Part shown: positions 52,437-57,538 of the stretch, one piece after another
How positions within the stretch are numbered: the first letter of the stretch is position 1
Layout: each line of letters opens with the position of its first letter
Origin: Escherichia coli
GTDB taxonomy: Bacteria; Pseudomonadota; Gammaproteobacteria; Enterobacterales; Enterobacteriaceae
Length of the DNA: 64,000 nucleotides
Assembly (NCBI RefSeq): GCF_002854065.1
Contig: NZ_CP024147.1
Strand: one strand, 5' to 3'
Notes under the pieces: generated by a model
What the model was told of the DNA's origin: nothing
Databases searched by the model: none
What the model saw: the letters and a program-made list of their open reading frames with translations, nothing else
Position numbers and translations under genes: made by a program

Positions 52437-52477
52437 CCCGGCGACAAAACGCCGCCGGGTATTTATTTTATTTCTTC
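52437..52477 (+). terminator. Putative intrinsic terminator after fadK, overlapping the ppsA stop
   Basis: Stem CCCGGCG / CGCCGGG followed by TATTTATTTTATTTCTT. Confidence 0.5.
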
Positions 52478-54846
52478 AGTTCAGCCAGGCTTAACCAGGT
52501 TTGCACCACGGTGTCCGGATTCAGAGACAGGCTATCGATCCCCTCTTCCATCAACCATGCGGCAAAATCTTCGTGGTCGGACGGACCCTGACCGCAAATC
52601 CCGACATATTTGCCCTGTTTCTTCGCGGCACGAATCGCCATCGACAGCAGTGCTTTCACCGCATCGTTGCGCTCATCGAACAATTCAGACACCACGCCGG
52701 AGTCACGATCCAGACCGAGCGCCAGCTGCGTCATATCGTTTGAGCCAATTGAGAAGCCGTCGAAATATTCGAGGAACTGCTCGGCCAGCAAGGCGTTGGA
52801 CGGGATTTCACACATCATGATGATTTTCAGCCCGTTCTCACCACGCTTCAGCCCCTGACGCGCCAGTTCCTCAACCACCGCTTTCGCCTGATCTACGGTA
52901 CGCACGAACGGGATCATGATCTCAACGTTGGTCAGCCCCATGTCGTTGCGCACACGTTTCACTGCTTCGCACTCCAGCGCGAAACAGTCGCGGAAGCTGT
53001 CGGAAACATAGCGGCCCGCGCCACGGAAGCCGAGCATCGGGTTCTCTTCATCTGGCTCGTAACGCTCACCACCGACCAGGTTGGCATATTCGTTCGATTT
53101 AAAATCAGAGAGCCGGACAATGACGCGCTTCGGATAAAACGCGGCACCCAGCGTCGCGATCCCTTCAGTCAGACGACCAACGTAAAATTCACGCGGAGAA
53201 TCAAAACCTTTCATCATCTCGCGGATTTCGTTTTGCAACTGCGGTTCCTGATCGTCAAACTCAAGCAGTGCGCGTGGGTGGACGCCAATCATACGGTTGA
53301 TGATAAATTCCAGACGCGCAAGTCCCACGCCTTCGTTCGGCAGACAGGCGAAGTCGAAAGCTCGGTCCGGGTTACCGACGTTCATCATCACTTTCAACGG
53401 CAGATCCGGCATCGTTTCTACGCTGGAGCTTTTCACGCTAAATTCCAGCAACTCCGCATAGACGTAACCGGTATCACCTTCGGCACAAGAAACAGTGACG
53501 TTCTCACCGTCTTTCATCCGTTCTGTTGCATCACCACAGCCCACTACCGCCGGAATGCCCAGTTCACGAGCGATGATCGCCGCGTGACAGGTACGACCGC
53601 CACGGTTGGTGACGATGGCAGATGCTTTCTTCATGATCGGTTCCCAGTCCGGGTCGGTCATGTCAGTGACCAGCACGTCACCAGGTTCGATGCGGTTCAT
53701 TTCGCTGATGTCATGGATGACTTTCACCGGACCCGCACCGATGCGATGACCGATAGCACGGCCTTCGGCGATAATCTTACCCTGTGAATGCAGCGTATAA
53801 CGCTCCATGACCTGACCGCGTGAGCGCACGGTTTCCGGACGCGCCTGCACAATGAACAGTTTGCCGGTGTGGCCATCTTTCGCCCACTCAATATCCATCG
53901 GGCGACCGTAGTGTTTCTCAATTTGTACGGCCTGTTTTGCCAGTTCCTGCACTTCTTCGTTGGTCAGCGAGAAGATGTCACGCTGTTCCTGCGGTACGTC
54001 TTCGATTTTAACCTGCTTGCCGTGCTCCTGGGTCGGCGCGTAAACCATGCGGATTTTTTTCGACCCCATGGTGCGGCGCACGATAGCCGGGCGATTCGCC
54101 GCCAGTGTCGGTTTATGCACGTAAAACTCATCCGGGTTAACCGCACCCTGCACGACCATCTCACCAAGGCCCCATGCGGAAGTGATAAACACCACCTGGT
54201 CAAAGCCGGATTCGGTATCAATGGAGAACATCACGCCAGATGATGCGAGGTCAGAGCGCACCATCCGTTGAACACCAGCGGAGAGCGCCACACCACGGTG
54301 ATCGTAACCCTGGTGCACACGATAAGAGATGGCGCGATCGTTAAACAGAGAAGCAAATACATGTTTCACTGCCACGAGAACGGCGTCAAAACCCTGAACG
54401 TTGAGGAAGGTTTCCTGCTGACCGGCAAAAGAAGCGTCCGGCATATCTTCTGCGGTGGCGGAGGAGCGCACCGCAAAAGAGGCGTTTTCGTCATCGGCGG
54501 AAAGCTGTGCATAGGCTTCGCGGATGGCGTTTTCCAGCTCAGGCTGGAAGGGAGTGTCGATAATCCACTGGCGGATTTGCGTGCCCGCTTTCGCAAGCTG
54601 AGTAACATCGTCAATATCCGTTTTATCCAGCAGTTCATAAATGCGCTGGTTTACGCCGCTTTGGTCCAGAAACTGGTTAAACGCGTCGGCGGTTGTGGCG
54701 AAACCATTCGGAACGGAAACACCCATTCCGGAAAGGTTAGTAATCATTTCACCCAGGGAGGCATTTTTGCCCCCAACCCTGTCTACATCATTCATGCCGA
54801 GTTGGTTATACCAAAGCACCAGCGGTGACGAGCCATTGTTGGACAT
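52468..54846 (-). CDS. ppsA: Phosphoenolpyruvate synthase
   Basis: 792-aa [37 protein letters not shown]... with PEP-utilising phosphohistidine domain. Confidence 0.96.
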
Positions 54847-54933
54847 CGAACAATCCTTTTGTGATAAATGAACGGTTTGAGAAACACATTTCTGCGCATT
54901 TATCTTTGCATATTTAACCGGATGAAAAAAACG

Positions 54934-54948
54934 GTGAATCGTTCAAGC
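54934..54948. promoter_or_regulatory. Putative Cra activator site upstream of ppsA
   Basis: GTGAATCGTTCAAGC has a good TGAATC left half-site, about 90 bp upstream of the ppsA start. Confidence 0.4.
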
Positions 54949-55178
54949 AAATATATTTTTTTACTTTTTAAGACTGATCCCAGCGTTGCGCAAACCTGCT
55001 CTCTTCGACAATTTCCACATAAACCATCGGTATAAACGAAACCATAAAAATGAAATGCTGTTTTCATAAAAAATAAAATTGAAGGTTCATTTTATAAACC
55101 AGACATAACGTTCTACGCTTCTGTGCGTTTTTAATTTATGCTTTCATAGAATTATGTCTGCATCACGGGAAGAACAAA

Positions 55179-56012
55179 ATGGATAATGCTGTTGATCGCC
55201 ACGTTTTTTATATTTCTGATGGTACGGCAATAACTGCGGAGGTATTAGGACACGCAGTAATGTCACAATTTCCCGTCACTATCAGCAGCATCACGCTGCC
55301 GTTTGTCGAAAATGAGAGCCGTGCACGGGCAGTGAAGGATCAGATTGACGCAATTTATCACCAGACAGGCGTGCGCCCGCTGGTCTTCTACTCCATCGTG
55401 TTGCCGGAGATTCGCGCCATCATCTTGCAAAGTGAAGGTTTTTGCCAGGATATCGTTCAGGCGCTGGTTGCCCCGCTACAACAAGAGATGAAACTGGATC
55501 CAACGCCGATTGCTCATCGTACCCATGGCCTTAACCCTAATAATCTCAATAAATATGATGCGCGCATTGCGGCGATTGATTACACCCTCGCCCACGATGA
55601 CGGCATTTCGTTGCGCAATCTGGACCAGGCTCAGGTGATCCTGCTCGGTGTTTCTCGCTGTGGTAAAACCCCCACCAGTCTGTATCTGGCAATGCAGTTT
55701 GGTATCCGCGCGGCAAACTACCCCTTTATTGCCGACGATATGGATAATCTGGTGCTACCCGCGTCGCTCAAACCGCTTCAGCATAAATTGTTCGGCCTGA
55801 CTATCGACCCGGAACGTCTGGCGGCGATTCGCGAGGAACGTCGGGAGAACAGTCGCTATGCCTCGCTTCGTCAGTGCAGGATGGAAGTCGCGGAAGTGGA
55901 AGCCTTGTACCGTAAAAATCAGATCCCGTGGATTAACAGTACCAATTATTCGGTAGAAGAGATTGCCACCAAGATCCTCGATATCATGGGCCTTAGTCGC
56001 CGAATGTACTAG
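55179..56012 (+). CDS. ppsR: PEP synthase regulatory protein (bifunctional kinase/pyrophosphorylase)
   Basis: 277-aa ORF with P-loop-like [11 protein letters not shown]; divergent from ppsA. Confidence 0.9.
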
Positions 56013-56025
56013 AGAACTAGTGCAT
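56006..56025. promoter_or_regulatory. TrpR operator of aroH
   Basis: GTACTAGAGAACTAGTGCAT matches the Trp-repressor operator half-sites CTAG-N4-CTAG; overlaps the ppsR stop codon. Confidence 0.7.
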
Positions 56026-56168
56026 TAGCTTATTTTTTTGTTATCATGCTAACCACCCGGCGAGGTGTGACACACCTCGCACTTGAAATCAGCAGCGATT
56101 GGTTTATCGTGATGCGCATCACTTCCCGGCAGTCCTGCCGTAGAAGCAACAAATTTCTGAGACTTGTA

Positions 56169-57215
56169 ATGAACAGAACTGACGAACTCCGTACTGCGCG
56201 TATTGAGAGCCTGGTAACGCCCGCCGAACTCGCGCTACGGTATCCCGTAACGCCTGGAGTCGCCACCCATGTCACCGACTCCCGCCGCAGAATTGAAAAA
56301 ATACTGAATGGTGAAGATAAGCGACTGTTGGTCATTATTGGCCCCTGCTCGATCCACGATCTCACCGCTGCAATGGAGTACGCCACCCGTCTGCAGTCGC
56401 TGCGCAACCAGTACCAGTCACGGCTGGAAATCGTAATGCGCACCTATTTTGAAAAACCACGAACTGTTGTCGGCTGGAAAGGACTAATCTCCGATCCAGA
56501 TTTAAACGGCAGCTATCGGGTAAATCACGGTCTGGAGCTGGCGCGCAAATTACTTTTACAGGTAAATGAGCTGGGCGTCCCAACCGCGACCGAGTTCCTC
56601 GATATGGTGACCGGTCAGTTTATTGCTGATTTAATCAGTTGGGGCGCGATTGGCGCACGTACTACCGAAAGTCAGATCCACCGTGAAATGGCTTCGGCAC
56701 TCTCCTGTCCGGTAGGTTTTAAAAATGGTACCGATGGCAACACGCGGATTGCTGTGGATGCTATCCGCGCAGCCCGCGCCAGCCATATGTTCCTCTCGCC
56801 AGACAAAAATGGTCAGATGACCATCTATCAGACCAGCGGCAACCCGTATGGCCACATTATTATGCGTGGCGGCAAAAAACCGAATTATCATGCCGATGAT
56901 ATCGCCGCAGCCTGCGATACGCTGCACGAGTTTGATTTACCTGAACATCTGGTGGTGGATTTCAGCCACGGTAACTGCCAGAAGCAGCACCGTCGCCAGT
57001 TAGAAGTTTGTGAGGATATTTGTCAGCAAATTCGCAATGGCTCTACGGCGATTGCTGGAATTATGGCGGAAAGTTTCCTGCGCGAAGGAACGCAAAAAAT
57101 CGTCGGCAGTCAGCCGCTCACTTACGGTCAATCCATTACCGACCCGTGTCTGGGCTGGGAAGATACCGAACGCCTGGTCGAAAAACTCGCCTCTGCGGTA
57201 GATACCCGCTTCTGA
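56169..57215 (+). CDS. aroH: Tryptophan-sensitive DAHP synthase
   Basis: 348 aa from MNRTDELRTARIESLVTPAELALRYP...; the ORF-track start at 56046 runs through the operator region. Confidence 0.95.
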   Translation: MNRTDELRTARIESLVTPAELALRYPVTPGVATHVTDSRRRIEKILNGEDKRLLVIIGPCSIHDLTAAMEYATRLQSLRNQYQSRLEIVMRTYFEKPRTVVGWKGLISDPDLNGSYRVNHGLELARKLLLQVNELGVPTATEFLDMVTGQFIADLISWGAIGARTTESQIHREMASALSCPVGFKNGTDGNTRIAVDAIRAARASHMFLSPDKNGQMTIYQTSGNPYGHIIMRGGKKPNYHADDIAAACDTLHEFDLPEHLVVDFSHGNCQKQHRRQLEVCEDICQQIRNGSTAIAGIMAESFLREGTQKIVGSQPLTYGQSITDPCLGWEDTERLVEKLASAVDTRF

Positions 57216-57304
57216 ATGCGTGCCCATTCCTGACGGGATGGGCATTTCTGCGCAACTTGTTGTCTTCTCAACACATTACTGCTTGCTCTGGTCAGCCATA
57301 ATAT

Positions 57305-57323
57305 TGATAATAAGAATCATTGT
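57305..57323. promoter_or_regulatory. Fur-box-like site upstream of ydiE
   Basis: TGATAATAAGAATCATTGT resembles the Fur consensus; 24 bp upstream of the ydiE start. Confidence 0.5.
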
Positions 57324-57346
57324 TATATCAATTATTATTAATTTTT

Positions 57347-57538
57347 ATGCGTTATACGGATAGCAGAAAACTCACGCCTGAAACGGATGCCAATCACAAG
57401 ACCGCTTCCCCGCAGCCTATTCGGCGAATTTCCAGCCAGACACTGTTAGGTCCGGATGGCAAACTGATTATCGATCATGACGGGCAAGAATATCTGCTCC
57501 GTAAAACTCAGGCTGGCAAGCTGCTGTTGACCAAGTAG
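57347..57538 (+). CDS. ydiE: HemP-family small protein
   Basis: 63 aa from [28 protein letters not shown]...; the ORF-track start at 57320 lies inside the putative Fur box. Confidence 0.75.

Follow-up and report, generated by a model that had tools for sequence, protein, structure and literature searches.

Overlap of the aroH TrpR operator with the 3′ end of ppsR in Escherichia coli and other Enterobacteriaceae

The 20-mer GTACTAGAGAACTAGTGCAT, located at positions 56006-56025 of the 64 kb stretch of Escherichia coli DNA analysed here (the window), is very probably the classical TrpR operator of the aroH promoter P1, with its left half written in the end of the upstream ppsR gene, in an arrangement that would be an innovation of the Enterobacteriaceae. 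The aroH TrpR operator is already known and catalogued, and its overlap with ppsR is evident from standard annotation; what is new here is the freezing of a codon and a stop codon in ppsR, the family-specific origin of the operator, and the presence of a conserved, operator-free second promoter (P2).

The operator and its overlap with ppsR

The ppsR gene (ydiA; 55179-56012, plus strand) encodes a protein of 277 aa which ends in RRMY, with a TAG stop codon at 56010-56012, and is followed on the same strand by aroH (56169-57215), encoding the Trp-sensitive DAHP synthase, the start codon of which is the ATG at 56169, not 56170 (protein start MNRTDEL). Between the annotated ppsR and aroH genes, GTACTAGAGAACTAGTGCAT is present in a single copy at exactly 56006-56025. 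In the window sequence the end of ppsR reads ...CGC CGA ATG TAC TAG, then AGAACTAGTGCAT, and in the 55700-56400 region ATG TAC TAG is followed by AGAACTAGTGCATTAGCTTATTTTTTTGTTATCATGC. The first base of the 20-mer is the third base (G) of the penultimate ppsR codon ATG, and since it then takes in all of TAC and TAG, 7 of the 20 operator bases lie within the ppsR coding sequence, stop codon included. This dual-use segment (56006-56012, plus strand), consisting of the last base of Met276, the Tyr277 codon TAC and the TAG stop, forms the left half-site GTACTAG. The coordinates, with the coding sequence ending at 56012, therefore confirmed the original prediction that the 20-mer overlaps the last ppsR codons and the stop codon.

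The operator is an 18-bp imperfect palindrome, GTACTAGAGAACTAGTGC (56006-56023, dyad at 56014.5), with two CTAG motifs at a spacing of 8 bp (56009-12 and 56017-20), the left one being composed of the C of the Tyr codon TAC and the TAG stop. It agrees with the idealised trp operator in 15 of 18 positions, and is thus related to GNACTAGTTNACTAGTNC in the manner of the TrpR operator class; the downstream gene, aroH, belongs to tryptophan/aromatic metabolism and the host is E. coli, whereas the trpR gene itself is located outside the 64 kb window. A search of the whole window with the idealised palindrome GTACTAGTTAACTAGTAC, allowing up to 3 mismatches, gave a single match at 56006-56023, and the control search gave matches in 0 of 100 dinucleotide shuffles. 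An inverted-repeat search also revealed a near-motif, TTAG (56025-28), 8 bp beyond the right CTAG, which together with the operator would form a possible tandem TrpR site. Such a third near-motif would fit the title of the paper by Kumamoto et al.

The region 55900-56200 is identical to that of E. coli K-12 MG1655 (window positions are converted to NC_000913.3 coordinates by adding 1,732,266), and the ppsR-aroH segment is annotated in this way in 5,421 of the 5,426 complete E. coli genomes in RefSeq. Regulation of aroH by TrpR is stated in PMC5343134 and PMC8265036, and the aroH operator papers (Kumamoto 1987, Klig 1988, Grove & Gunsalus 1987) are cited in passages of PMC7518442 and PMC8265036. 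TrpR binding at the 20-mer is here taken from the literature, with the contact boundaries based on these citations. Our literature search gave nothing usable on ChIP evidence for TrpR at aroH, and found no paper commenting on the overlap of the operator with ppsR.

Promoters and leader of aroH

Transcription start sites (TSS) were obtained from a single SMRT-Cappable-seq dataset (PMC6131387, Supplementary Data 2), with coordinates accurate to ±1 nt. The aroH P1 promoter (56019-56054, plus strand) has its TSS at 56054 ± 1 (MG1655 1788320), 7 nt past the −10 sequence TATCAT (56042-47), which is preceded by a T-run (56033-39) and an extended −10 TG (56039-40). The −35-like sequence AGTGCA (56019-24) is located beneath the right half-site and is weak, with a 2/6 match to the consensus; P1 was missed by a simple promoter scan, and its −10 is partly conserved in an alignment of 76 regions (see below).

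With the TSS at 56054, the operator spans approximately −48 to −31, on the −35 region, with the dyad at about −39.5, as expected for the classical aroH operator. The anatomy of the 20-mer and its place over the −35 of the mapped start are both in agreement with its assignment as the TrpR operator of aroH, as was originally predicted. The accompanying proposal that promoter and operator are both embedded in the 3′ end of ppsR was upheld for 7 nt of the operator, but is overstated for the promoter, because the −35-like hexamer, the TG and the −10 are all past the stop codon. The mechanism supported here is an ordinary one, promoter occlusion: tryptophan-bound TrpR would contact both CTAG motifs, centred some 39.5 bp ahead of the P1 TSS, and by covering the weak −35 would block the binding of RNA polymerase.

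The second promoter, P2 (56083-56117, plus strand), consists of TTGAAA (56083-88), a 16-nt spacer and TATCGT (56105-10), with the TSS at 56117 ± 1 (MG1655 1788383), 7 nt past this promoter-like site (56083-56110), which was independently found by the simple promoter scan. The P2 hexamers are near-invariant in 76 species, exceed those of P1 in conservation, and are also retained in the operator-free genera Serratia, Yersinia, Erwinia and Pantoea. Since P2 is located about 100 bp downstream of the operator, it should be free of TrpR occlusion, and is thus predicted to allow aroH to be expressed independently of TrpR.

Centred on the P2 start is the palindrome GTGATGCGCATCAC (56109-56122), which contains a CRP-like core GTGAT-N4-ATCAC. 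Its half-sites GTGAT and ATCAC hardly vary over the range from Escherichia to Yersinia and Pantoea, whereas the central 4 nt do and there are no compensatory changes, which suggests a protein site; GTGATGCGCATCAC is therefore a candidate site for a regulator of the CRP type (TGTGAT-N4-ATCACA), although it is also FNR-like. The GTGAT-N4-ATCAC pattern was not enriched in the window (3 observed versus 2.6 expected), no link between CRP and aroH was found in the literature search, and a RegulonDB-derived network lists TrpR as the sole input to aroH.

A perfect 10-bp hairpin, GCGAGGUGUG/CACACCUCGC, is located in the P1 transcript, 6 nt from its 5′ end (56060-56080, plus strand; arms GCGAGGTGTG/CACACCTCGC), with a predicted energy of −15.6 kcal/mol. 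In Enterobacter-like species it is replaced by a G+C-rich hairpin (CGGGGCG..CGCCCCG), which suggests that a 5′-terminal stem-loop is conserved in the P1 transcript, possibly with a role in mRNA stability. A further leader hairpin, CGGCAG-tc-CTGCCG (56127-56140), is small and positioned approximately 30 nt upstream of the aroH ATG, with one pair changed from G-C to A-U in 6 species and another from C-G to U-A in 1. No Rfam families were detected in the region 54800-57400 at E values up to 1.

Conservation of the overlap in Enterobacteriaceae

A scan of a genome collection with PpsR gave 80 species-level loci, all from Enterobacteriaceae and with 90-100% protein identity. The overlap was kept in 77 of 81 Enterobacteriaceae species, comprising 76 of the 80 scan loci and Klebsiella, and in these 76 loci the operator offset was constant, beginning 4 nt ahead of the stop codon in the arrangement ATG-TAC-TA(A/G)-N4-CTAGTNC. 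The non-identical regions from the ppsR stop to the aroH ATG were aligned (76 regions, from 75 scan species and the window), and had a mean column identity of 61%, with ATGTACTA and the right-hand CTAG being invariant.

The terminal Tyr codon of ppsR was TAC in all 76 species, which are related by descent and hence do not represent 76 independent events, while both codons occurred at every one of the eight remaining conserved Tyr positions in ppsR (345 TAT to 395 TAC in total). The stop codon was TAA in 62 and TAG in 14 of the 76 species, and never TGA. Judging from this codon usage, the bases shared with the operator appear to lock the ppsR Tyr codon to TAC and its stop codon to TAA or TAG. 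The four exceptions are natural experiments which uncouple the operator from the stop codon. In a MAG (L033) the operator is lost, ppsR ends in TAT-TAG and aroH is 361 bp away, while Intestinirhabdus alba (L036) has the sequence ATG-TAT-CAA-TAA, giving a one-codon C-terminal extension (MYQ-stop); the left half-site is lost or altered in both, and both have TAT. In Enterobacter sp. ENT03 (L070) a 24-bp insertion has shifted the complete operator 24 bp downstream, and in Kosakonia sacchari (L040) ppsR and aroH are separated by about 1.6 kb.

These data also bear on the alternative that the 20-mer is a chance palindrome at a gene end, without any regulatory role. A gene ending in ...TAC TAG does yield one CTAG unaided, but a comparable match was absent from all 100 shuffles, the site is invariant across genera within flanking intergenic DNA of only 61% mean column identity, it is correctly positioned over the −35 of a mapped TSS, and aroH is an accepted TrpR target. 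Conservation and position together effectively refute a chance origin, the probability of which we consider negligible.

Origin of the operator

The gene order ppsA<- ->ppsR ->aroH was found in all six additional loci examined (Klebsiella and five non-Enterobacteriaceae genera), and only the Klebsiella locus has an overlapping operator, GTACTAACACACTAGTAC. No operator was found in Serratia, Yersinia, Dickeya, Erwinia or Pantoea, where the best operator-like score was at most 10/18. The last ppsR codons in these five genera are TTC, TTT, TAT, TAC and TAC, and the stop codons are TGA, TAA, TAA, TGA and TGA, respectively. This absence agrees with the RegPrecise distribution described in PMC5343134, which limits the regulation of aroH by TrpR to a small number of close Enterobacterales.

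The C-terminus of PpsR is RRMY in Klebsiella, Shimwellia, Mixta, Erwinia and Dickeya, RRMF in Serratia and Yersinia, and RSMY in Pantoea; because ends of the RRMY type are also present outside the Enterobacteriaceae, the C-terminus is older than the operator. The P2 block is likewise conserved in four of the five outgroup genera (Serratia, Yersinia, Erwinia and Pantoea), where TTGAAT...TATTGT, GTGATCGCCATCAC, CCCGGTATTCCTGCCG and the ribosome-binding region follow each other in that order. Hairpins past the ppsR stop codon in Erwinia and Pantoea were considered as terminators and rejected, as they are stable but lack U-tracts.

The most economical reading, based on the genomes of the five outgroup genera, is that P2 is the older promoter and that P1 and the operator were added in the Enterobacteriaceae lineage. 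P2 would then be the ancestral aroH promoter, operator-free to date, while P1 and the TrpR operator would have been assembled behind ppsR and upstream of P2 in an ancestor of the Enterobacteriaceae, with the ATG-TAC-TAA of ppsR recruited as a ready-made left half-site, GTACTA(G/A).

The window also contains ppsA (PEP synthetase) next to ppsR (its regulator) and aroH (a PEP-consuming DAHP synthase), together spanning 52468-57215. The ppsA-ppsR-aroH order is kept in Enterobacteriaceae, Yersiniaceae, Pectobacteriaceae and Erwiniaceae, a hint that the supply of PEP and the first step of the aromatic pathway may be functionally connected.

Transcription through the ppsR-aroH junction

The TSS of ppsR is at 55148 ± 1 (plus strand; MG1655 1787414), downstream of a −10-like TATGCT (55137-42), and SMRT-Cappable-seq lists a "novel" b1703|b1704 transcript from this TSS, a ppsR|aroH co-transcript which traverses the operator. 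The predicted ppsR read-through is thus supported by a reported co-transcript with aroH, and neither of two 3′-end maps lists an end at the palindrome: no plus-strand end near MG1655 1788300 was present among those listed in the Term-seq data of Adams 2021 or in TRS 2023, with the caveat that ppsR is weakly expressed. TRS 2023 does list the aroH terminator, at 1789512-16, and the TERMITe tables have no entry for either ppsR or aroH. Lacking an efficient terminator here, ppsR would allow some of its transcripts to run on into aroH.

A different reading of the palindrome is that, in RNA, it and the T-run also constitute the intrinsic terminator of ppsR. The ppsR RNA can be read as terminator-like at 56003-56039 (plus strand), as AAUGUACUAG-AGAA-CUAGUGCAUU followed by AGC-UUAUUUUUUU, which would place the stop codon within the 5′ arm. 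A ribosome at this position would then tune termination, and hence read-through into aroH. This is the sole terminator-like match in 54800-57400, with a hairpin of −11 kcal/mol (z −3.5), or of −13.7 kcal/mol in a form having two extra G-C pairs which bring the stem up to UUAUUUUUUU; the z values lie between about −3 and −3.5. The U-tract UUAUUUUUUU follows the stem after a 3-nt gap, or adjoins it if these two G-C pairs form across the internal loop. An RNA covering ppsR alone, some 890 nt in length, could moreover have escaped SMRT-Cappable-seq, because the libraries were size-selected for at least 1 kb. However, the stem is AT-rich, with only 3 of 10 pairs being G-C, the T-run is restricted to Escherichia, Citrobacter and Salmonella, the hairpin pairs show no compensatory change in RNAalifold, and the reported co-transcript passes through the site. 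As the 3′-end datasets also have no end listed at the palindrome (Adams 2021, TRS), we have downgraded this reading and consider it unlikely. Selection at the RNA level on the operator hairpin was rejected, as RNAalifold found no compensatory pairs.

The original prediction further suggested that ppsR read-through and TrpR occupancy could interact, which is plausible by analogy with the lacI/O3 system. TrpR bound to tryptophan might halt polymerases near the end of ppsR, with the stop codon still some 20 nt away, which would give a stop-less ppsR mRNA, tmRNA tagging and less PpsR when tryptophan is plentiful, and would also keep the ppsR promoter from expressing aroH independently of TrpR; in turn, strong ppsR transcription might dislodge TrpR. 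The geometry would allow for this, with the upstream edge of the operator (56006) 4 nt ahead of the stop codon of a co-oriented gene and ppsR transcription reaching and passing the operator in SMRT-Cappable-seq. There is precedent in the end of lacI, where LacI bound to O3 causes truncation of the lacI mRNA and SsrA tagging (PMC3711431 citing Abo 2000), and in GalR and dCas9 blocks within coding sequences, which cause transcript release and trans-translation (preprint 10.64898/2026.05.06.723219). No 3′ ends were found at ~55985-55995 among those listed, in datasets with conditions and depth ill suited for their detection, a search for reports on ppsR 3′ ends, PpsR tagging or PpsR levels in relation to tryptophan or trpR gave none, and recruitment of the half-site fully explains the overlap without such a function. 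As a small, rapidly exchanging dimer that is not known to have a looping partner, TrpR is expected to be a weak roadblock. We therefore regard a block of this kind as very unlikely; if true, it would tie the level of PpsR, the PEP-synthetase regulator, and read-through into aroH to tryptophan supply, and would represent a second natural case of the lacI/O3 type, linking PEP supply with aromatic biosynthesis in Enterobacteriaceae.

Two further features were noted at the flanks. An abundant antisense RNA 3′ end is located within ppsR (window ~55382, minus strand; MG1655 1787648; Adams et al. 2021), and could derive from a promoter on the minus strand, within the ppsR-aroH junction or close to it. 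Directly 3′ of aroH is a hairpin, GCCCAUUCC...GGAAUGGGC (window ~57213-57250), and this aroH-ydiE hairpin appears to be a bidirectional terminator, because TRS places 3′ ends on both strands (1789479 on the minus and 1789512-16 on the plus strand).

Implications

As the operator of aroH is textbook knowledge, the overall significance of these findings is low. The locus does provide a clear case from nature in which a regulatory site selects the synonymous codon and the stop codon of a neighbouring gene, with TAC and TAA/TAG frozen in Enterobacteriaceae and free in the sister families, as well as an example of a repressor-controlled new promoter stacked upstream of an older, operator-free one. 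In practice, synonymous recoding or stop codon replacement at the end of ppsR is an edit of the aroH operator. Genome recoding from TAG to TAA would, by inference, change CTAG to CTAA, and is probably tolerated because TAA is the natural stop codon in most other genera, while a change of the ppsR stop codon to TGA would be riskier for the operator than TAA. The TrpR-independent routes to aroH, via P2 and via ppsR read-through, are relevant to the engineering of aromatic-pathway flux.

Comparison with known systems

The TrpR operators of E. coli are those of trpLEDCBA, trpR, mtr, aroL and aroH, and the site described here is the aroH member. Like the others it is an imperfect palindrome of 18-20 bp with a pair of CTAG motifs 8 bp apart, which lies across a core element of the promoter and regulates a gene of the tryptophan/aromatic pathway. 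The operators differ in the element covered, with the trp operator covering the −10 and the trpR operator the start site, whereas that of aroH covers the −35. The distinctive feature of the aroH operator is that its left half-site consists of coding sequence and stop codon of the upstream gene.

The transcription of aroH resembles that of the extended operons described with SMRT-Cappable-seq, as aroH is likewise transcribed both by promoters of its own and within a longer ppsR-aroH RNA. Since 34% of RegulonDB operons were found to be extended in that study (PMC6131387), the ppsR-aroH read-through is by itself unremarkable.

In both lacI/O3 and ppsR-aroH, an upstream gene that is co-oriented and transcribed into the repressor site of a downstream promoter shares its 3′ end with that site. 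In lacI/O3, roadblock, truncated RNA and tagging have been demonstrated, and depend on the LacI loop between O1 and O3, whereas no loop partner is known for the aroH operator. Furthermore, the repressor in lacI/O3 blocks its own gene, while ppsR is unrelated to its would-be blocker TrpR.
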